64,000 bases of DNA from an uncultured archaeon (GCA_964486045.1 CAZALK010000008.1:1-64000), one strand, 5' to 3'. Counted from the stretch's first letter, positions 53,121 to 63,544 are shown. Numbers and translations: made by a program. The notes: generated from the sequence alone by a model not told the origin.

Positions 53121-53564
53121 TTGAGAGTGAAAGTGAAAAATTTGCCTCGTGTAGAGAGAAAAGTGGATATTTCAGCACCTCAAGAAAAGATTTTCAAGAT
53201 AATTGATACAGATCGGGATTATGCTCGATGGAATATTGTCGTGAATGAGGTTACTGAGCTTGGTCCAGGTAACTATTTCTTTAAAACAAATGTGGGAGAT
53301 GTCACGTCAACTCGTGTTGAAACCAATCCGCCTGAGAGTCTTTCTGCGTCTCAAGAAGGAAGCCCAATGACAAGTTTAGGTTATGTATTAAAACCAAAGG
53401 GAGATATTGTAGAAGCTACGATTTGGGCGGAATTCGATGATGCAGGTCAAGAACAAATACTTGGTATGGCTGGGGAGATGCTTGTAAGTAGTTTGAAAAA
53501 ATATGCTGAATACCTTGAAGCTGGAGGAAATCCAGAAGATTATAACAAAAAGAAAAAATACTGA
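53121..53564 (+). CDS. SRPBCC/START-like family protein
   Basis: VDISAPQEKIFKII...YARWN...VETNPPE and a C-terminal SLKKYAE helix. Confidence 0.8.
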   Translation: MRVKVKNLPRVERKVDISAPQEKIFKIIDTDRDYARWNIVVNEVTELGPGNYFFKTNVGDVTSTRVETNPPESLSASQEGSPMTSLGYVLKPKGDIVEATIWAEFDDAGQEQILGMAGEMLVSSLKKYAEYLEAGGNPEDYNKKKKY

Positions 53565-53582
53565 AATTAATTTATTATTAAA

Positions 53583-54107
53583 TTAGTCTTTTCTTTTATT
53601 TTTTAGCACACTTTTTTCTGCTTCTTCTAAAGAATAAAAAAGATCTCGACCATTGTCATACTTCTCAACGTAGCAGAACCTTAGAAAAAATAAACTTTCA
53701 GGGAAATATTGAATGACTTGTATTTTTTTTATTAAAAGTGAAGGATTTTCATCAATTTTCCCCTGTATTGTTGAAACTACTTCAGGTTGTAGTTTTCTGA
53801 ATTCACTTACAAAAGATAAAAACTTATTTAATGGATCTTGATTTCTATCAACGTTCTCCGTGATAGCATGAGCCCATCCGTATGATAAATTCCAATTAAA
53901 TTTCATTTTAAGCCATTCACCAAAATGTTTGAAAAGAGGAACTCTTACCTCAACGATCGAATGTAATTCTAAACATGAATCATAACCAGCCAAAAACATT
54001 GATAATGATCTGATTGATTTGTCTGGAATGAACATACTTGTACGTTCTTTAATTCTGTCAATCAGATCAAAAATATTTTTCCTTTCAAAATAATTTTTCA
54101 TAGTCAA
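53583..54107 (-). CDS. Hypothetical protein (bacterial-looking helical family)
   Basis: 174-aa ORF directly downstream of the displaced polB 3' end, with the pattern IKERTSMF...SIRSLSMFLAGY...FGEWL...GWAHAI...FVSEF. Confidence 0.7.
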   Translation of the reverse strand: MTMKNYFERKNIFDLIDRIKERTSMFIPDKSIRSLSMFLAGYDSCLELHSIVEVRVPLFKHFGEWLKMKFNWNLSYGWAHAITENVDRNQDPLNKFLSFVSEFRKLQPEVVSTIQGKIDENPSLLIKKIQVIQYFPESLFFLRFCYVEKYDNGRDLFYSLEEAEKSVLKNKRKD

Positions 54108-54148: not shown

Positions 54149-54588
54149 TTAGAAAAAAGCATCCATCTTTTTAATACCTTTAACTTCATCAAATGTAATT
54201 CCGAGTGCATCCAACACTTGTTCTAATGCGGATGTCAAGAGCTCCTTATATTTTTTAGTATCAATATCTTGGAGTTTGGCTAATTCTAGTGCTTTTGCTC
54301 CAATAAGACCTTTACTTTTAATAAAACTAATTTTTTCACCCTTTTGAAATTCCCTTTTAGTAATTTTTTTCAATTCGAGAGCAGCTCGGACATGTTGTGG
54401 TATAACCTTAGTATCATTTTTAAGAGCCTTTTTAAGACTCATATTTATCGCGTAATCATTCAAGTTAAAGTATTAGATTTTCGAATTTTTTTGATATTAT
54501 CTCTTACGATTCCAATTATTTCATCTTTAACATTAGTAAATTCTTCAATTTTTGTGATATTTTTTAACATTTCAATTAAAATTGAAAA
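54149..54588 (-). pseudogene. polB: Displaced, frameshifted 3' fragment (~150 codons) of family B DNA polymerase
   Basis: FSILIEMLKNITKIEEF...KKIRKSNT/FNLNDYAIN...IPQHVRAA...QDIDTKKYKELLTSALEQVLDALGITFDEVKGIKKMDAFF aligns colinearly with the PolB C-terminus at 60608-61060. There is a one-base frameshift near 54468. Confidence 0.9.
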
Positions 54589-54968
54589 ATTGTGAGAAAA
54601 TTCCCCATATTTGAGATTTGGACAATTTATACAAAACGTTTTTAAATCTGTGATAAAAGATCAACCTATTTATTTTAGAGAAGATTCATAAACTTTACCT
54701 TGACAAAAATATCAAATCTTCATTTTTGTAAATTCTTTTACGTGCTAAAATAAAGTATTCGCTCTCAAACTCTCTAACACACCGTAAAAAGATAATATTT
54801 AAAATGAACAAAAAATCATTCTTAGACTGCTTCAGGGAGTGCACGATGATGGAAAAGTTGTTATGCGAAAAGTATAGAATGATAAAAATTAGAAAGGAAA
54901 TATTTAAACATCCGGATGAAAAGATGATGGGAATTAGAGAATTTTAGATTCCGCTTGACAAAAAATTT

Positions 54969-55859
54969 TCATTGATAAAAAGGAATAATTCTTGCATAGT
55001 TAATATCTAAAAAATGCAAAATCAATTTAAAATCCTTCAAATTCAGAGTATATATCTTATTCTCTGAATTAATCAATAATTCACATATAAAAAAATCTCC
55101 TAGATTAAAGCAATATCGCGTGTGAAAATCATATTTTCTCTTATTAGTATTAATATCTATCAATTTTTCTACTGTTTTATAGAATCGGTCATCTAAAATT
55201 AATTTATTTTTCTCACAAAAACCTTGGGCTTCATTAAGAATAGTACTAAATACTTTTTTATATTTCTTAGTTAATTGTTCTAATTTAAATTCTCTGGCAT
55301 TGCATATTTTCTTCGCACAGCTATTAATATATAAAAATTCATAACAAAAAGTATTTTCATTATATACGATTTCCCACTCCGATCTTGGACATGGATATGT
55401 TAGGTTATTATTCCATTTAGAGATTTCTTCTTGAAACTCTAATAAATCATTAACAATAATATTAAAAGCTGATTTTACTCTATGAATTTGCTTTTTTTCA
55501 TAATTTGGATCAGATTTCTCTACAGGAATTTTATCAATACAGTTTCTTATAATTGTAACAATAGAGGTACAGCGATTTTTTAATTGAGGGCTTCTTTTTC
55601 TCTGGATATATTGGTTAATATCAATCCAAAAATCATCAACATTAAATTGTTTCTTTTTCGAATTTAATTTTTCAAAAACTATTTCCCTTAATTTAAAAAA
55701 TGAATTTAAAATTACTGTTCCTATCTCTGATTTTAAAATCGGATTAATTAAAATGTTATTTTTAAATGTAATAAATTGATTTTTTATTCTGTCTTTCTGT
55801 GAGGACTTACCATATAAATAATACACCAAAACACTTGTATCGGGGATTATAGCAATAAT
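54969..55859 (-). CDS. PIN-domain nuclease with a large helical insertion
   Basis: The frame upstream of TTG 55829 reads IIAIIPDTSVLVYY (PIN motif-1 Asp), and the C-terminus reads LGDFFI...IYTLNLKDF. A start at ATT/ATA behind GAGTGA is required. Confidence 0.75.
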   Translation of the reverse strand: MIAIIPDTSVLVYYLYGKSSQKDRIKNQFITFKNNILINPILKSEIGTVILNSFFKLREIVFEKLNSKKKQFNVDDFWIDINQYIQRKRSPQLKNRCTSIVTIIRNCIDKIPVEKSDPNYEKKQIHRVKSAFNIIVNDLLEFQEEISKWNNNLTYPCPRSEWEIVYNENTFCYEFLYINSCAKKICNAREFKLEQLTKKYKKVFSTILNEAQGFCEKNKLILDDRFYKTVEKLIDINTNKRKYDFHTRYCFNLGDFFICELLINSENKIYTLNLKDFKLILHFLDINYARIIPFYQ

Positions 55860-55915
55860 TATACATCACTCATCTCTTTCTATTATTGCTGTTATTTGCA
55901 TTTTATATTATTCAT

Positions 55916-57130
55916 CTAAAGTTCTATTTTTTCTTTAAAATCAACGAATATATGATGATCTTCTCCTATAATTTTGATCGATTCAATATCGTCTTTTTCA
56001 GAAAATTCATCAATTTCTTCAATTAATTTAAAATCAGTAATTTTTGTTTGTATCTCTTCAATTTTTTTTGATTCAGTTGTCTTCTCTCTTCTAATAATTT
56101 GTTTCTTTTCCTCTTTTTTTATACTTCTTAACTCATTTTTAAATTCTTCATAGTCTATTTCCAGTTCTGGCAATTGATCCTTATAATCTATGAATTCAAG
56201 TGAATTTTTTAATTCATTAAAATGTAATCTTAATTTTTCAATAGAGGTTTTATTCAGAGGATAATTTAATTGCAAGGATTTTAGAAAGAATTTCAAAAAC
56301 TCCTTTTTTGAATCAAGACTAGTTAAGTGAGTTTTTTCAAAAGTAAGTACTTCCAATAATTTATATTTCAAGAATTTAAACGATTCATCTGGATCATCTA
56401 TTGAAATGTTATCTATAGTGAAGACTAAATGTTTTTTATTAATTTGACTTTTAGCTTTAATACCTTGACGAATTTCTTCCAAAATTGAATAAAAATGCTC
56501 TTTCTCTATGTTTTTTTCATTTCTACAGAATAAATTCAAAATACCATCAAGATTGCTAAATAATTTAATGATATAGCCTTCATCTAAGCTATAAATCATC
56601 TTTAATATAACTTCTTGATTAAAGAATTTATTATGCGCTATTATTTGTTCTTTAATAATGGATTTCTGGGTAAATTTAGGCTTTAAGTAATAACAAAGTT
56701 GAATAAGATCAGTCAAATGTTCATGATCATAATGTACTGATAATATTTTAATTAGTTTGATTTCCTTTTTGAGGTCAGAATTATTTATATAGTTATCTTT
56801 TAATATACTTTCAATTTCTTTCTTTCTTTCAGGATTTATTTGATATAATCTTTTAGAATCTATAGGAATAAAATTCGAGTTTTTCTCGAATACTTCTTCG
56901 TAGGAAATGAGTTGCTCAGTAATTAAGGGTGCAATATTCGTTTGAAAATTAACTGCAAATGGACCTAGATTATATGAAATGAAATCAAGATCAGATTCAC
57001 CCTTAAGTTCAAATATTTCCTCTAATAAGAACATTAATTTCATTGCTCTTGTTATTAAGGTAGTGTGTACTTTCGAATAATACAATATCAATAAAATCTT
57101 TTCATTAAAATCTAGATTACTTAAGCTCAT
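55916..57130 (-). CDS. wHTH antitoxin-like protein (SocA/Panacea/YwgA-like N-terminus) with a helical and acidic C-terminal extension
   Basis: ILLILY...ITRAMKLMFLL...FISYNLGPFAVNF...LITEQLI pattern. Overlaps the upstream gene by 14 nt. Confidence 0.6.
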   Translation of the reverse strand: MSLSNLDFNEKILLILYYSKVHTTLITRAMKLMFLLEEIFELKGESDLDFISYNLGPFAVNFQTNIAPLITEQLISYEEVFEKNSNFIPIDSKRLYQINPERKKEIESILKDNYINNSDLKKEIKLIKILSVHYDHEHLTDLIQLCYYLKPKFTQKSIIKEQIIAHNKFFNQEVILKMIYSLDEGYIIKLFSNLDGILNLFCRNEKNIEKEHFYSILEEIRQGIKAKSQINKKHLVFTIDNISIDDPDESFKFLKYKLLEVLTFEKTHLTSLDSKKEFLKFFLKSLQLNYPLNKTSIEKLRLHFNELKNSLEFIDYKDQLPELEIDYEEFKNELRSIKKEEKKQIIRREKTTESKKIEEIQTKITDFKLIEEIDEFSEKDDIESIKIIGEDHHIFVDFKEKIEL

Positions 57131-58454
57131 TTTCTATTTCCTCCTTTTTCTTTTTTAATAACTCCCAATTATTCATTTTTAAATTTGTACTAAATATTTC
57201 TTTTATAAATTCTTCTAAATCACAATGCAATTGGCGATCTACATTATAAAAATTATGGTTCATCAAAATAATATTTTGTTTGGTCTTCAATTTTTCCTTT
57301 AGAGTCTTTACTGCTTTTCCCCTGAACTTATTATAAGCATTTACATCAACTGGATTTTGGAAATATATATCAAATGCTCTCTGTAATGATTTAATTCTAA
57401 AATCATAACAACTTGAACATTTACAATTATAGTCTAAACTAGGTTTACGCAATAAATCCTCTGAAAACCCTCGATCATTATAAAATTTACCATTTCTTTG
57501 AAAATAAAATCTTCTGGTTCGAGGAACCATAGCAGGAATATTTACATTAAGACCAGGATACCCACTAATTCTTATAATTTTTTTAATATTAGGATTTATT
57601 TTATCAATAAGTCGTGAGCTACAAACACCAATATAAAACACGAATAATTTAGCAAATACTGAATTGAACTTTTCGATTATATCATAAAACTCCTTCATTT
57701 CCTTTTTACTGGCACTAATCTCATTGAAATCTACAATCCATAATCCTATTTTATTAAAGAACTCATATTTCTTTATTATTTCAGTAATATCATAATGATG
57801 TTTCATATAATCTTTTAGATTTAATACAATCATGGGAATATGGTTATTTAAATTATATGTCTTGACATATTTAAGAGATAGATTATATAATTCCTCAATA
57901 GCTTTTTCATTAATACTATTTAATTTTTTAAAAAAAGAACCTTTCTTAGAAATTTTTATTGGAATTGCTGGTAAAAAAGGAATAGTAAAGCAAGAAACTT
58001 TGAAATTATCATGACTCTTAAATAATTTCTTTTCAATTAAAGTCCTCGGTCTATTTTTGTATTTCTCAACAAAATCAATAATCTGAATTGACTCTGATAT
58101 TTCTTTTTTAAAATATTTTTCTAAATTAGCACCTTGAAAATCAGAAACAAATAAACTATAATCTTTTAGAAGTTTTTCTTTTGTTTCATCGTTTAGAGAA
58201 GGAGTTTGAGGATCTATCAGATAGGGGCGAACATTATAATAATTCTTATATAAAATAACCTCCTTATTAAGACTTTCAATTGATTTTATAAAAGATTCAT
58301 CAATTTGCTTCTGTTTGGTTTTTTTGTCCTCTTTGAAGAAATGTCTTTTAGGAACTAGAAATCCCTTGCATAGAGAATGCTTTAAATAGAGATTTAATCT
58401 TTCAATTTCCGTCTTAAATTGAAGTTTATAATATATATTTGACAATTTAATCAT
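57117..58454 (-). CDS. TGT-like (TIM-barrel) protein with a C-terminal CxCxxC...H zinc site
   Basis: YLIDPQT near the N-terminus and RRFYF...CKCSSC...MNHNFY at the C-terminus, resembling the tRNA-guanine transglycosylase Zn subdomain. Confidence 0.55.
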   Translation of the reverse strand: MIKLSNIYYKLQFKTEIERLNLYLKHSLCKGFLVPKRHFFKEDKKTKQKQIDESFIKSIESLNKEVILYKNYYNVRPYLIDPQTPSLNDETKEKLLKDYSLFVSDFQGANLEKYFKKEISESIQIIDFVEKYKNRPRTLIEKKLFKSHDNFKVSCFTIPFLPAIPIKISKKGSFFKKLNSINEKAIEELYNLSLKYVKTYNLNNHIPMIVLNLKDYMKHHYDITEIIKKYEFFNKIGLWIVDFNEISASKKEMKEFYDIIEKFNSVFAKLFVFYIGVCSSRLIDKINPNIKKIIRISGYPGLNVNIPAMVPRTRRFYFQRNGKFYNDRGFSEDLLRKPSLDYNCKCSSCYDFRIKSLQRAFDIYFQNPVDVNAYNKFRGKAVKTLKEKLKTKQNIILMNHNFYNVDRQLHCDLEEFIKEIFSTNLKMNNWELLKKKKEEIENELK

Positions 58455-58890
58455 TTATTTGTTCTTTTAAGATATATCTTATCTTCTGATAATTCGCTTG
58501 GATAAGATATTTACTTTTTTTCGGCTTTAATTCAATGATATTTTTATCTTTTGATACAATTATTAATCCTATCCCTTCGTTAATTAACATATCTCTATCA
58601 ACTTTATCTTCATAATCTTTCCAAATAGCTAATGAATTATAAGGAATTAGAACCCGATTTCCTAAAGTTTGTCCAAATCCTTTTTTCCAATTAAATACTT
58701 TAAATTCTAATGCGTGGGCAGTTCCAAACCGATTATTATACTTTCTTAGTTGAACAAGATCGATTCTTTTTTGATTATTTTTAACTTCCTTAAAGATTAG
58801 GGTTTTGTCGCCTTCTATCAATTTTAAATTCCCGATATAGGTATTCACCATTTCAAATTCTGAAATAATTTGTTGATTTTTGACCAGCAT
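58447..58890 (-). CDS. PD-(D/E)XK restriction-endonuclease-fold protein (MmcB/sce7726-like)
   Basis: E...RIDLV...ALEFKVFNWKKGFGQ...GIGLI. Overlaps the next gene by 8 nt. Confidence 0.7.
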   Translation of the reverse strand: MLVKNQQIISEFEMVNTYIGNLKLIEGDKTLIFKEVKNNQKRIDLVQLRKYNNRFGTAHALEFKVFNWKKGFGQTLGNRVLIPYNSLAIWKDYEDKVDRDMLINEGIGLIIVSKDKNIIELKPKKSKYLIQANYQKIRYILKEQIND

Positions 58891-59069: not shown

Positions 59070-60557
59070 ATGAGGGAAGAAAGGGAAATTAAACGAAACC
59101 ATATCAATACTTCATGTAGTAAAAATGAGTTAACAAAAAACACAGGAAAGGGTAATTATGGGACAATGGATAATTTTTTTGAAGATATTAAATCAGGTTC
59201 TATAGAGGTTGAAAGAGAATATTTTACCAGTAAATCAGGTCTTCCTTATGATGAGGAAATAGTAGTAAAAGATCCAAATGGGATTGTTTGTAAGGTTAAA
59301 ATTGGAAGTATAGAGAATTCATGGAAAAACTTAAAAGTTTTATCAATCAACAAATTTAATTCACCGAAATTTGGTTCACCGAAATTTGTACCGATTATAA
59401 ATTTTTTAAAAAGTGTAACTTCATTTTTATTAAAAATTCGGTTATCAGATGGGAGACAAATTGTCTGTAGTCAGAATCACATTTTTCCTAAAATTGTAAT
59501 TTCTATCAATTTTAAATCATATAATTCTCCAGAAAGCTTCTTTTCAATTAAATATGTGAATGCTAAAGAACTAAAGGAGCGAGATAATTTGTTAGTCTTT
59601 CACAAGATTCCATTGACTTCAAACGTTCCAAAATATATTTTTATTCCTAAACTTCTTAATTGGGAGCATAAATGGATTGGAATAAAAAGAAGTGATTATG
59701 TAAAATTTTCCTATAGAACGAATCAAAGAACTAATAATCCTTTAATACAATTAATAAATTCAAAATTTCAATATTCCAAGGTGGGAAAAAAATATAGAAC
59801 ACTTTGGTCAAATTTATCAAATTCGGAAAAACTTTTTCTTGAAATGGAAGCGAAAAGAAATCACGTTGAAATCTTGATAAAGATCCATGAAAATGTTGGA
59901 TTTTGGTATTCATCAATAGTTCCATTAACAGATGATTTTTTTAGATATTTAGGTTGGTATGTTGCTGAGGGGTCTACAGACAAGAATAGAGTGACTATTT
60001 CTCAATCAAAAGAAAAAAATTATAATAATTGGATTGAAATTATTGATCTCCTTAAGCGATTAGGGTTCCCTGTAAGCATTTGCGCGCAAAATATGATCAG
60101 AATAAATTCAAATGTCTTAACTGAGCTAACAATTGAATTATGCTTAAAATTGGCTCAAAACAAGAAAATTCCTTTAGAATTAATTATGAATAATAGTAGG
60201 ATAAAGTCATTTTTAGAAACATATTATAAAGGAGATGGTTGTCAATTAAGAGGGGAATTAAAGAAATATACAACCACAAGTCAGCAATTAAAAAATGATT
60301 TAGTAAGCATTCTTGGAGCGACAGGACATTTTTGTTCTATTTGGTATCCAAGTTCTTCAGATAATTGTTATCGTATAACCGAAACTGATGGAAAACATTA
60401 TAAAAGAAAATACTTAGGTCTTCTTAAATTCAACAGTACAACTCCCATAAGGATTAAGTCCATAAGAAAAGTTAAAAAAAATTATGATATATTTAATTTA
60501 AAGACTGAAAATGGTTGGTTTGTCTCAACAAACGGAATTTTAGTCCAGGATTCTTAA
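59070..60557 (+). CDS. Free-standing intein-like (Hint + LAGLIDADG) protein lacking canonical splicing residues
   Basis: Block A GLPYDEEIVV, block B IRLSDGRQIVCSQNH, block C YLGWYVAEGS, block E FLETYYKGDG, block H TTSQQLKNDL, and blocks F/G IFNLKTENGWFVSTNGILVQDS-stop. Confidence 0.88.
   Translation: MREEREIKRNHINTSCSKNELTKNTGKGNYGTMDNFFEDIKSGSIEVEREYFTSKSGLPYDEEIVVKDPNGIVCKVKIGSIENSWKNLKVLSINKFNSPKFGSPKFVPIINFLKSVTSFLLKIRLSDGRQIVCSQNHIFPKIVISINFKSYNSPESFFSIKYVNAKELKERDNLLVFHKIPLTSNVPKYIFIPKLLNWEHKWIGIKRSDYVKFSYRTNQRTNNPLIQLINSKFQYSKVGKKYRTLWSNLSNSEKLFLEMEAKRNHVEILIKIHENVGFWYSSIVPLTDDFFRYLGWYVAEGSTDKNRVTISQSKEKNYNNWIEIIDLLKRLGFPVSICAQNMIRINSNVLTELTIELCLKLAQNKKIPLELIMNNSRIKSFLETYYKGDGCQLRGELKKYTTTSQQLKNDLVSILGATGHFCSIWYPSSSDNCYRITETDGKHYKRKYLGLLKFNSTTPIRIKSIRKVKKNYDIFNLKTENGWFVSTNGILVQDS
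59360..59388 (+). repeat. Short tandem duplication (TTCACCGAAATTTG x2, 15-nt period)
   Basis: Encodes SPKFG-SPKFV in the Hint N-terminal region. Confidence 0.75.
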
Positions 60558-60607: not shown

Positions 60608-63544
60608 TCAAATAAATCCATCTAATTTTTGAAATTCAAGAGTTTCTAAGCTTGAAATATCAATACCAATACTAAAAGCATCAACAAACTGTTCTAGAGC
60701 TGATCTCAATAGTTCTTTGTATTTTTTCACATCAATATCTTGCAGATTTGCTAATTCTATTACTTTAGCTCCGATTTTATCTTTACTCTTAATAAAACTT
60801 ATCGTTTCGCCTTTTTGATATTCTTTTGCGGTTTTTTTTTTAAATTCTTGAGCAGCTCTAACATGCTGTGGTATTGTTTTTTTATAATTATCAAGCTTCT
60901 TTTGCATAATTATGTTAATTGCATAATCTTTTAAGTTGAACGTGTTGGGCTTTCCGATTTTTTTAAAATTTGAAATAATAAGCTTTTTGATATCTTTCTT
61001 TGCTTTTAAAAATTCATCATAGCTAGTGACCTCTTTAATAATTTCTAATAAATCACTGAAAGCTTTTTTAATAAATTCTGGTGTGTTTTTCTTCTTTGCT
61101 ACAAGGCCTTTCATGTCAATATATTTAGTATCCTTATATACTCCAAGATAATTCTTTTTTCTATCAGAAAGAGCTAAGAATTGATAAGTTTTTTCCTCTT
61201 CCAAGTCAAGATCAAGGGTTTTTTTACTCCAGTCAGTTATTTCACTCAATTGTTCTTTTGAAGGGTTTAAGAGGAAAACAGAATCTGTATCCCCATATAA
61301 AACCTTAATCCCTATTTCTTCAGTTTTTTTTATTGTTTGTTTAATAGAATATTGCCCTATTCCCGTGATGCTTTCTGCTACTGGTAAACAAAACAACGGG
61401 AAATTTTGAGACCCAAAAACACCAAAACTTGCGTTAACAAAAACTTTAAGCGCTTGTTGAATAGTTTGATTATAACTTCTTTGTTTTTCTGTTGAACTTT
61501 TATCTTCTGATTTAGGTTTAAAATACTTAACTCTTATATCCCTGAAAAATCCAACAACATAGGCAAAGATCCCCATCTTTTGAGAGCAAATATGGTATGG
61601 AGAGCCTTTTACTAAATTATCTCGATCTTCTTTATGAGGACAAATAACTGTTTCATAGGAAAGATTGTATTCCTTTATTATTGATGGATATAGACTTGCG
61701 AAATCCATAACAACAACATCAAAATGAATTCCAGGAACAGGTTTTATTACATATGCCCCTTGGAATTTCTTATCGTTCGCGCTAGACATCATTTTTCCCC
61801 CTTTCTTAAGCTCTGAAATCTCAGATCGCCGAGGGATTAAGTAATTCTTCCTACGGTGTTCAAAATGGAAAATATTTCGTATCCATGTTGATATTTGCCT
61901 TCTAACCATTTCATGGACAGGCATTTTAGTTATCCGGCATAACAAAATGATTAAATTCCAAACTAACGAGTTGTTAAATTTTGTCAGTTCTAAGGTTAAT
62001 AAAGAATCTTTCAGGTTATACCAGGAAAGGATATTATAATCCATATCTTGGATTTCTTCCTCATGCTGATATTTTTCCTCTCCCAGAAGAGCAGCACTAA
62101 TAGCATTCAAAGACGAACTTTCATAAGCACCTCCAAAAGCGTATCCAGAGATGCTTCTATTGAAAAATAAATTAAACACGTCAATGTGAATTCCACTCCT
62201 TAGTTCACATTCTGCTTTGGTCATAATACCAAACCCACGTTTAACTTGAATAGGATTAAGGTCTTTATTAACCTTTAGCCTGTCATTTGCCCTATGATAT
62301 AAATAGTTTAAATCAAAATTGTCTCCGTTAAATGTAATAACAACTGGATACTCCCACATTAGGCGAAATGTCTCTATTAGTAAACTTTTTTCAGATTTGA
62401 AGAAGATAACTTTCGCATCAGGAGGAAATTTTTCATGAGGTTTTGTATATTTGTAACCTTCCCTTTCTAGAATATAAACAAGTTTCAACCCATCTGTGGC
62501 AACAAAAGATATACTTATTACTTCCTGTTTGGCTAAGCGAGGGTCTGGAATGCCATGATCTTTAACATCCATACTTACCTCAATATCCATAGCCATACGT
62601 TTGACATCAGGGATTGGAGTAATGAAAATATCCAAAAATGCCTCAGAAAATTCTTGAATCTCGGGGGATTCATCTTTAAATAAATCTCTAAGCTCATTCG
62701 CCACTTTTTTGGAATCTTTATCGATCTTCTCAAAATCTATTTTTTCTAGCTTTCCATTTTTAATACAGTAAATAAGACCGGGGATTAACTGCCTATCGAA
62801 GATATAATTTAAATGATATCGGATATCAGCTTCGTAGGCTTTTTTTCCATTTTCTTCTAAAATAGTACGAATATTTGTCCCAGTGCCACCAATATTTGTT
62901 GGAGTTTCCCCATAAAGCTTTGTAATTTTAATTTCCTTATCGGATAATAAATCAAATTTTTTAATCTCTTCAAATCTTTTGAACCAAGGATATTCAGTTA
63001 ATTTAGTCTTTTCTAACTCTGAAATTGGCTCTTTACTTAAACAGTAAGGTTCATGGTCAGTGGTATCAATCCAAATTTTTATATCGTCTTCGTCTAAATC
63101 ATAGAATTTACAGTATGCTTTATTTTGCCCACCATCATAATCCACATCAAGCAATAACCCTTGATCTAAATTATCTACGATTTTTCCTGTTGCGATTAAA
63201 TAACGAATATATGTCGAAGTTACACCTTCTCTGAGTACTTTATCAAGTTTTACATTGCCTAATTTTAATCCAAAAGGTTCTTTGTTTTCCTTATAAAACA
63301 GATTTTTTGGAATTTCACCACTAACTAATTTTTCTTCAGGGGAAAACTTTTCAATATTTTTCTCTTTAATTGGTTCTGGTTTTTCAGCAGTTTTTTTTTC
63401 TTTAATTTCTTCTTTCGTGGTTACTTTTGCTGGTTCAATTTTCTCACCTTTTTTATCATCTACAAAAGAAAATAAGGATTTTTGCGCTTTGTCTTCAATA
63501 CTCTTCTTATTGCTTTTTTTTGGACTAGGCACTTTGTACACCAA
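60608..63544 (-). CDS. polB: Family B DNA polymerase (archaeal PolB1 type), intein-free
   Basis: Exonuclease motifs MDIEV, TFNGDNFD and YNLKDS. Polymerase motifs DFASLYPSII, QQALKVFVNASFG, YGDTDS, KKNY and PQHVRAA. Confidence 0.97.
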   Translation of the reverse strand: MVYKVPSPKKSNKKSIEDKAQKSLFSFVDDKKGEKIEPAKVTTKEEIKEKKTAEKPEPIKEKNIEKFSPEEKLVSGEIPKNLFYKENKEPFGLKLGNVKLDKVLREGVTSTYIRYLIATGKIVDNLDQGLLLDVDYDGGQNKAYCKFYDLDEDDIKIWIDTTDHEPYCLSKEPISELEKTKLTEYPWFKRFEEIKKFDLLSDKEIKITKLYGETPTNIGGTGTNIRTILEENGKKAYEADIRYHLNYIFDRQLIPGLIYCIKNGKLEKIDFEKIDKDSKKVANELRDLFKDESPEIQEFSEAFLDIFITPIPDVKRMAMDIEVSMDVKDHGIPDPRLAKQEVISISFVATDGLKLVYILEREGYKYTKPHEKFPPDAKVIFFKSEKSLLIETFRLMWEYPVVITFNGDNFDLNYLYHRANDRLKVNKDLNPIQVKRGFGIMTKAECELRSGIHIDVFNLFFNRSISGYAFGGAYESSSLNAISAALLGEEKYQHEEEIQDMDYNILSWYNLKDSLLTLELTKFNNSLVWNLIILLCRITKMPVHEMVRRQISTWIRNIFHFEHRRKNYLIPRRSEISELKKGGKMMSSANDKKFQGAYVIKPVPGIHFDVVVMDFASLYPSIIKEYNLSYETVICPHKEDRDNLVKGSPYHICSQKMGIFAYVVGFFRDIRVKYFKPKSEDKSSTEKQRSYNQTIQQALKVFVNASFGVFGSQNFPLFCLPVAESITGIGQYSIKQTIKKTEEIGIKVLYGDTDSVFLLNPSKEQLSEITDWSKKTLDLDLEEEKTYQFLALSDRKKNYLGVYKDTKYIDMKGLVAKKKNTPEFIKKAFSDLLEIIKEVTSYDEFLKAKKDIKKLIISNFKKIGKPNTFNLKDYAINIIMQKKLDNYKKTIPQHVRAAQEFKKKTAKEYQKGETISFIKSKDKIGAKVIELANLQDIDVKKYKELLRSALEQFVDAFSIGIDISSLETLEFQKLDGFI

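Follow-up and report, generated by a model that had tools for sequence, protein, structure and literature searches.

[quoted passage not shown] WHO elements are a third form, described so far in a few yeast genera only. At the yeast FBA1 locus, the host gene is followed by a gene for an intein-like nuclease that lacks exteins and then by a 3′ fragment of the host gene itself, which has a chimeric history and whose old 3′ end is pushed downstream (Coughlan et al. 2020, PMC7282813). HO was domesticated from WHO (PMC7282813). A recent preprint still treats WHO elements as restricted to yeasts (Osborne et al. 2026, bioRxiv 10.64898/2026.08.13.744650), and the literature that we searched contained no description of such an element in archaea or bacteria. 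Here we describe a locus of an uncultured archaeon that probably carries the nuclease gene of an independent, WHO-like homing element of Asgard archaea (Promethearchaeota).

Nuclease genes that lie beside their target are also known from phages and mitochondria. The seg and mob genes of T4 ('intronless homing') and the mitochondrial endonuclease ORFs that replace the 3′ end of a gene are inherited by co-conversion of the target sequence that flanks them, and the gene described here, which we call FSI, is alike in this. The T4-type free-standing phage endonucleases are GIY-YIG or HNH enzymes and are not derived from inteins, unlike FSI, and the phage cases are not known to leave a displaced 3′ fragment of the target gene, unlike the FSI loci. 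Fractured genes with split inteins resemble FSI in that an endonuclease gene stands apart from the splicing context (Dassa et al. 2009, PMC2677866); there, however, it is the host gene that is broken up, with intein halves that continue to trans-splice, whereas at the FSI locus the host gene, the family-B DNA polymerase gene polB, is whole and a dead Hint domain is fused to the nuclease.

The window that we analysed is the whole stretch of 64,000 nucleotides at positions 1-64000 of contig CAZALK010000008.1 (assembly GCA_964486045.1). Its genome contains a single copy of FSI. The features of the locus are collected in Table 1.

Table 1. Features of the FSI-polB locus, with positions counted from the first letter of the window.
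Feature	Position	Strand	Evidence or remark
FSI, free-standing, splicing-dead, intein-derived LAGLIDADG endonuclease gene	59070..60557	+	ORF, Pfam/NCBIfam models, alignment, AF2/Foldseek
Met33, likely true start of FSI	59166	+	onset of homology with closest copies
Gly58 in Cys1 column of FSI	59241-59243	+	alignment to true polB inteins
LAGLIDADG acidic residue E300 of FSI	59967-59969	+	alignment
LAGLIDADG acidic residue D389 of FSI	60234-60236	+	alignment
Gln493-Asp494 in His-Asn columns of FSI	60546-60551	+	alignment; then Ser495 and stop
polB, intein-less family-B DNA polymerase, 978 aa, chimeric	60608..63544	-	5′ part native, 3′ part imported
Imported polB 3′ part, codons ~701-978, non-canonical C-terminal tail	60608..61444	-	change point, 3′ tree, AU tests
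Site of the ancestral intein in polB, motif B codons A705|S706 (candidate for the target and for resistance)	61427..61432	-	junction alignment
Cargo, four variable genes between fragment and FSI, GC 0.25-0.26	54969..58890	-	absent from conserved module
Spacer, fragment to cargo	54595..54968	.	no polB signal in profile search
Displaced native polB 3′ fragment, ~codons 826-977 and stop, canonical C-terminus	54149..54594	-	tblastn, profile search, 3′ tree
Flank marker gene, 360 aa	51595..52677	+	synteny with relatives

The reading frame of FSI is open through 495 amino acids and ends GTC CAG GAT TCT TAA, that is, V-Q-D-S-stop. Because homology to the closest copies begins only at 59097-59103, the true start may be Met33. 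The N-terminal ~57 amino acids varied in length and sequence across the FSI family and could not be aligned between members, and tblastn with polB found no polB similarity in them. An extein remnant at this end, which a first-pass annotation made from the sequence had allowed for in the first ~55 residues, was ruled out on these two results. Two members (P0006 and P0009) carry an N-terminal CxxC..CxxC extension with Zn-ribbon matches that stay under the Pfam cut-offs.

Pfam LAGLIDADG_3 (PF14528) scored above its cut-off in FSI (E 4e-5), and both Intein_splicing from Pfam and intein_Nterm (TIGR01445) from NCBIfam scored slightly under theirs. The best solved relative by sequence is PI-PkoII (2cw7, E 4e-8). 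The same protein was the top Foldseek match (E 1.6e-15 across 494 columns) for an AlphaFold2 model with a mean pLDDT of 70, low chiefly at residues 1-53. It was followed by VMA inteins, PI-SceI and PI-PfuI, and then by I-DmoI, which matched the endonuclease core with a TM of about 0.6. Intein endonucleases thus head the matches over the full length of the protein, in keeping with a Hint fold, and the core has the two-helix LAGLIDADG arrangement (alpha-beta-beta-alpha-beta-beta-alpha) with terminal acidic residues.

We read the splice junctions of FSI against the columns of true polB inteins (P0013-15 and L006-L014, with the pattern ..N(G/A)|C...HN|S(Y)G). The Cys1 column is occupied by Gly in all eleven free-standing homologues that cover it, Gly58 in the window. 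At the other end, Gln493-Asp494 take the columns of the His-Asn pair and Ser495 that of the +1 residue. The C-termini of the free-standing family read QD, NN, HN followed by Q or N, HD, HQ, IG and SE; HN was retained twice, but in each case the next residue is Q or N. The residue after the terminus is often Ser and sometimes Ser-Phe in this clade, apparently left over from the +1 extein residues. In block F the free-standing clade has Asn in place of Asp, and the block B His is present in the window copy and is Gln in most homologues. E300 and D389, by contrast with the junctions, are invariant in 15 sequences together with their glycines and surrounding motifs. FSI thus has no nucleophile at position 1, no C-terminal Asn followed by a C-extein +1 nucleophile, and no in-frame insertion into a host; it is a separate ORF on the strand opposite to polB. 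Judged by these residues, the protein is unable to splice and has nothing to splice.

These results bear out the core of the first-pass annotation, which had called a free-standing intein with Gly at the Cys/Ser1 position, a terminal Gln-Asp (CAG GAT) followed by Ser and a stop, both junctions disabled, the acidic residues of the endonuclease retained and the 495-codon frame intact. Alignment of position 1 and block G, which it had proposed as a check, gave the same picture. Two of its statements held in part. It had found all intein blocks present, and the Hint fold and the block B His are indeed kept, but the block F Asp has become Asn in the clade; it had seen no recognisable host protein, and there are no exteins, but an intein-less polB adjoins the gene.

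A Hint domain that still processes itself, with Ser57 as the nucleophile and an N-terminal peptide or the Zn-ribbon extension of a subclade as the part cleaved off, is a very improbable alternative. The retained Hint fold, the block B His of the window copy and the Ser directly before its Gly58 would all suit such a protein. Across the family, however, the residue before the Gly58 column is S, Q, E or G, the block B His and the block F Asp are replaced as described, the terminal Asn is missing in most members, and the N-terminal peptides are short and unconserved.

We searched 5.8 billion proteins and retrieved eleven free-standing homologues of 356-690 aa that are 58-92% identical to FSI, all from Promethearchaeota metagenomes. 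At 37-47% identity the same search reached proteins with Pfam DNA_pol_B, which are true inteins within polB. Thirteen genome loci contributed 4 further free-standing copies and 9 true inteins. Among 1.84 billion representatives, a profile search found just two 50%-identity clusters of the free-standing type, the remaining strong full-length matches being embedded in proteins of more than 1000 aa or being pieces cut by contig ends. The free-standing clade is monophyletic (100/100) and stands on a long stem beside the true polB inteins L006/L007/L010 of the same archaeal family, a sister grouping that is weak (76/65). The closest true inteins, whose host gene the first-pass annotation had suggested identifying, thus lie in polB motif B of the same archaeal family. 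VDE (PI-SceI) ranks below the Asgard polB inteins and PI-PkoII as a relative of FSI. Since these are its nearest relatives, the FSI element is an analogue of the yeast elements and not a member of the WHO/HO/VDE family. Its ancestor was probably a polB motif B intein that left its host gene once.

Canonical polB inteins (PI-PkoII, 2cw7; PI-TliII; Haloferax volcanii, PMC3024317) share with FSI the Hint and LAGLIDADG fold and the connection to the motif B region of the polymerase. FSI differs from them in lying outside polB and in having neither Cys1 nor a His-Asn pair with a +1 nucleophile. Resistance to the FSI element cannot arise by interruption of the site. Asgard inteins enter polB one codon further downstream than at the Thermococcus N-junction (..LAN|S..) seen in L016, a comparison with the Thermococcus pol-b site that covers the N-junction only, as contig L016 ends inside the intein.

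Comparison of homologues, another check named in the first-pass annotation, gave dN/dS values of 0.22-0.32 in seven of eight pairs; the closest pair, in which changes are few, stands at 0.41. Between the window and metagenome contig L082, the endonuclease part has a dN/dS of 0.17, against 0.54 for the N-terminal Hint part. FSI is under purifying selection and has retained a function. Of the explanations that we weighed, the least probable by our estimate, and a most improbable one, is that FSI is a young pseudogene, the decaying remnant of an imprecisely excised intein. Such a remnant could have two dead junctions and a variable C-terminus, as FSI does. Against it stand dN/dS values far under 1 and a frame that is intact in at least 12 lineages at 58-93% identity, which also contradicts the absence of intact homologues that the first-pass annotation had named as fatal to its reading. 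A real pseudogene in the family, the FSI copy of L126, looks quite different and has a 131-codon deletion and a frameshift.

FSI and polB are convergent and separated by 50 nt in the window. The same tail-to-tail arrangement with an intein-less polB was seen in all eleven contexts that have visible downstream DNA (the window, L002-L005, L082, L083-85, L086, L087, L088 and L089). Beyond the nuclease gene, at least seven lineages carry a 3′ fragment of polB in the same orientation as polB. Shorter fragments are present in L003, L004, L005, L082, L083-85 and L123, and L121 has a fragment as well; none was found distal to the nuclease gene in L002 and L086. The window fragment is 62% identical to the resident polB copy, contains one frameshift near 54463-54499, and compares with the resident 3′ end of the relative L099 at a dS of 0.52 and a dN/dS of 0.18. 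A profile of the polB C-extein matched it at positions 181-329 only (codons ~826-977), with the adjoining spacer blank. A fragment that reaches back to the intein site was ruled out by this profile, as it never extends to codon 706.

The surroundings of the fragment show where it comes from. In relatives with the intein (L006, L007 and L010) and in G085, which is free of the element, the polB stop lies directly against the 3′ end of the gene for the 360-aa flank protein. In element-bearing genomes the fragment takes polB's place beside this gene, as in L082, where position 171 is the last of the flank gene and position 183 the first of the fragment. The element-free polBs of the genus share the canonical tail ..KKMDAFF, as do the fragments, and the polBs adjacent to FSI have several different C-terminal tails. 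The fragment is the old native 3′ end of polB, still in place.

Cargo genes lie between the fragment and FSI. They differ among L082, L123 and the window although these copies are 92-95% identical, and window-type cargo is found beside the FSI pseudogene of L126. Pfam and PADLOC gave weak, sub-threshold matches only for the cargo, and its functional assignment was dropped for this reason. We saw no integrase or transposase in the conserved module and no tandem clusters of nuclease genes, each locus having one copy; short-read assemblies would collapse tandem arrays, and the contigs of G051 and G082 stop directly at the 3′ end of polB.

The polB gene beside FSI is chimeric, with a native 5′ part and an imported 3′ part, and has undergone recent transfers between lineages. 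We built polB trees that included 25 element-free polBs of the window's genus. In the 5′ tree (codons 310-698), the window polB is sister to the element-free L099/G085 (100/99) and the element-linked polBs are scattered among element-free ones; an AU test on these data rejected monophyly of the linked alleles (p 3e-5). In the 3′ tree (codons 829-962), it is the window fragment that is sister to the resident 3′ end of L099 (100/98). All FSI-linked resident 3′ ends fall into one clade there (86/91), which also holds L107, L112 and L120, with the same kind of tail, and L006. On the 3′ data, AU tests rejected a grouping of the window's resident 3′ end with L099 (p 0.02) and with its own fragment (p 0.037). 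A smaller polB data set showed the same conflict (AU p 0.003 and 4e-5). In-frame TGA codons that appeared in the polB of three relatives proved to be an alignment artefact upstream of the real start.

Breakpoints were located by pairwise comparison. The window and L099 are about 97% identical over codons 660-700, and differences become dense from codon 701, which is also the maximum-likelihood change point (2-lnL interval 696-707; LRT 40.5) and lies within four codons of the old intein site. The window and L082 share 94.9% nucleotide identity from 59103 through FSI into polB, against just 75-77% in the fragment and the flank gene, with unrelated cargo; in polB, their dS drops from 0.45 before the site to 0.07 downstream of it, and codon 699 is the change point. 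Against L123, divergence rises from 4.5% to 24% at codon ~590 (LRT 171). Older events have later change points, at ~733 in L120, ~791 in L003 and ~827 in L002, and one breakpoint common to all lineages was ruled out by this spread (590, 701, 733, ~791 and ~827). A rate shift that is frequent at codons 825-830 is confounded by fast evolution of the thumb, since intein-bearing pairs drop likewise. The tree of the nuclease and that of the polB 3′ end disagree in places, L004 for example joining L005 in one and the window in the other, which excludes strict co-inheritance of the two. Because the trees are not fully congruent, the nuclease gene and the polB 3′ end have also recombined with each other.

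Motif B of the window polB reads ..NA|SFG.. at codons 705|706, where relatives carry the intein. Residue -1 of this old site is Gly in 23 of the 25 element-free alleles and in the intein-bearing alleles of the archaeal family, and is Ala or Ser in all ten FSI-linked alleles. One linked allele has Ala at +1 as well, and the window has Phe in place of the motif B Tyr at +2. L003 has the altered -1 residue though its 5′ part and its codons 706-790 group with element-free relatives, and it shares a short patch, codons 705-708, with L002. A change that made the nuclease's target resistant would be expected to look like this. Together with the breakpoint at codon 701 and the ancestry of FSI, the -1 changes make the old intein site our favoured candidate for the target. 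Breakpoints downstream of it are not predicted by a simple model with a cut at codon 705, unless later recombination has shifted them or the cut lies further 3′, up to the fragment start at ~826. We infer that FSI cleaves DNA at or near the old intein site and that the changes at the site confer resistance.

FSI may instead be a passenger relic that no longer cuts, the swaps and the fragment being products of ordinary homologous or illegitimate recombination or of another agent in the island. We consider this unlikely. Breakpoints spread across codons 590-827 and a pseudogene among the FSI copies are in its favour, as is G033, which has kept the fragment and the imported tail, yet has two unrelated genes in place of the nuclease gene. 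Ordinary homologous recombination among related species could also yield some of the mosaicism without a site-specific cut. A relic would not, however, be expected to show well-constrained dN/dS with its lowest values in the endonuclease domain, or an invariant catalytic Glu and Asp. Nor does a relic account for a nuclease gene found beside polB in every one of the 11 contexts, for a -1 codon that is changed in each of the ten linked alleles, even on a native background, or for a conserved module without integrase or transposase.

The first-pass annotation had compared FSI with yeast HO and proposed that an archaeal intein was domesticated as a stand-alone site-specific nuclease that mobilises the island. 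The HO lineage is the right comparison, in view of the free-standing gene, the dead junctions and the intact core and frame. Domestication was not borne out. FSI was present in only 5 of 135 species genomes of the archaeal family, in two genera (3/54 in the window's genus, 2/10 in another), and the related true intein in 3 of the 135. A host nuclease or DNA-binding protein, HO-like or WhiA-like, that for example regulates or protects polB and is inherited vertically would be under purifying selection and could keep a fixed place beside polB within conserved flanking synteny, as we observed. It is nonetheless quite improbable given the patchy distribution, the horizontal mobility of the linked polB 3′ ends, near-identical modules within diverged flanks, the pseudogene in L126 and the loss variant G033. 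The patchy presence, the mobile 3′ ends and the pseudogene copy argue for a selfish homing element. The proposal that FSI mobilises the island held for FSI and the replacement polB 3′ end, which are mobile, but not for the cargo, which varies between near-identical copies. On the sequence evidence, FSI is at the selfish, WHO-like stage and not at the domesticated, HO-like one, and the cargo genes are hitch-hikers.

A homing cycle can be proposed from these data. In our reading, a polB motif B intein left its host gene once. It lost the residues for splicing, as Cys1 became Gly, the block F Asp became Asn and the terminal His-Asn degenerated, while the Hint fold and a complete LAGLIDADG core stayed. 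The nuclease gene would be transcribed independently, convergent with polB, and the mobile unit would consist of this gene and a replacement 3′ end of polB. The nuclease would cut polB alleles that lack the element, and the most likely place of the cut is the old intein site (..NG|SYG..) or its vicinity. Repair of the break off an element-bearing genome would then copy in the donor's 3′ part of polB together with the nuclease gene, the donor part having an altered site (Ala or Ser for Gly at -1). The recipient's own polB 3′ end would be displaced downstream as a fragment and could then act as the distal homology, and cargo genes would build up between the nuclease gene and the fragment.

The locus shares several traits with WHO elements (Torulaspora and Lachancea, with HO as a domesticated relative; PMC7282813). 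In both, the LAGLIDADG protein is intein-like but lacks exteins and a working motif G, and its gene lies downstream of a host gene that is essential, is transcribed independently and sometimes has the opposite orientation; FSI holds this position in its 11 contexts. A second copy of the host gene's 3′ end lies beyond the nuclease gene in both, and the host gene is chimeric, with discordant 5′ and 3′ histories; its travelling 3′ end is seen here in trees, AU tests and change points. Allelic differences at the presumed target and the decay of copies to pseudogenes are likewise common to both. The two differ in origin, which is separate, the nearest relatives of FSI being archaeal, PI-PkoII-like polB inteins and not VDE. 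The presumed target of FSI is the very gene that hosted the ancestral intein. A zinc finger is missing from the window protein and from most FSI members. Tandem clusters of diverse nuclease genes and pseudogenes, which yeast WHO loci have, were not seen at FSI loci, the sole pseudogene case found being L126. The FSI host is an archaeon without meiosis, and its nuclease's cleavage is a prediction.

In conclusion, the WHO strategy appears to have arisen independently in Asgard archaea out of a polB intein. With belief and doubt about evenly divided, we would go further and read the element as a living intermediate of intein escape, which still targets its source gene, is actively homing between Promethearchaeota species that are up to about 25% diverged, rewrites the polymerase thumb and the PCNA-binding tail, and ferries defence or toxin cargo. 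If this is true, the 'third class' of homing elements would gain its first member from a prokaryote, and the path that ended in yeast HO would have been invented a second time, independently. The ancestral intein persists in the polB of sister genera, and the transition from intein to free-standing gene, a step that the yeast model has to postulate, can therefore be compared within one archaeal family. As a natural LAGLIDADG enzyme by prediction, with a predictable target and putative natural resistant alleles, FSI may also serve for tests of co-evolution between enzyme and site. The Asgard replicative polymerase is a mosaic whose last ~270 codons can be foreign, which matters where polB is used as a phylogenetic marker. 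The sequence of the locus also records how species of an uncultured lineage have recombined with one another, and the element, if our reading is true, would directly mark the exchange of DNA between species in the group of archaea that is closest to eukaryotes.

At locus L126 the free-standing intein-derived LAGLIDADG gene (nuclease gene) is a pseudogene whose aligned parts are 84-87% identical to the window protein, and it adjoins the same cargo cassette that, in the window, separates the nuclease gene from the displaced polB fragment. Among these window cargo genes, PADLOC returned only weak matches, AbiEi-like and DarG-like. In one subclade (P0006 and P0009), the free-standing protein carries an N-terminal extension of ~230 aa, which opens with a CxxC..(22)..CxxC, zinc-ribbon-like motif; Pfam Zn-ribbon matches to the extension fell under the cut-off. 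Since the yeast WHO and HO proteins have a zinc finger, this extension forms a curious parallel.

At L121 (genome G033), where polB has an imported-type tail, two genes of 336 and 373 aa, for which no Pfam family was found, occupy the place expected for the nuclease gene. Either the nuclease has been replaced here, or this site is shared by a second type of element. In genomes G051 (C112, L107) and G082 (C208, L112), whose polB also has an imported-type tail, the contigs stop right at the polB 3′ end. These contig ends are consistent with the assembly having broken at the polB segment that is duplicated, and the nuclease genes of these two genomes, if any, are unassembled.

Between the 360-aa flank gene and the displaced fragment, some element-bearing genomes hold further genes, which are missing at L082, L002 and from the element-free genome G085. 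This makes the old polB 3′ junction a second hot spot for insertion. Elsewhere in the window, a single ORF of >9,400 codons extends past the 5′ end, and thus encodes a giant protein; its GC content (0.34-0.39) is slightly above that of the remainder of the window.

Coordinates of features in the window and at related loci
Feature	Location	Strand	Remarks
Giant ORF	window 1-28344	+	
Genes between flank gene and displaced fragment	window 53121-54107; L003:2800-4571; L090:2540-2962		polyketide-cyclase-like gene and at least one small gene
Cargo, four co-oriented genes	window 54969-58890	-	very low GC, 0.25-0.26
Imported polB tails	window 60608-60650; 3′ ends of L002-L005 and L087-L089		
Nuclease pseudogene	L126:884-1915		codons 84-214 deleted; frameshift near codon 304
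N-terminal extension of the free-standing protein (P0006, P0009)	L003:5314-6000; L088:67-800		
Flank gene, displaced polB fragment, polB with imported-type tail	L121:7456-10225		
Inteins at further polB sites	L010:1105-3102		two inteins in a single polB

Inteins occupy further sites in the polB of relatives (L010, G036, G042, G038 and G068), one following YGD in motif C, at codon ~752, and another close to codon ~618. The imported polB tails themselves are widely divergent. All of them nevertheless finish in a short motif whose final residues are aromatic or hydrophobic (..STLF, ..DDFF, ..LDGFI), which resembles the canonical ..MDAFF tail. Because this ending is kept throughout, the polB tail swap seems to preserve a PCNA-box-like end.
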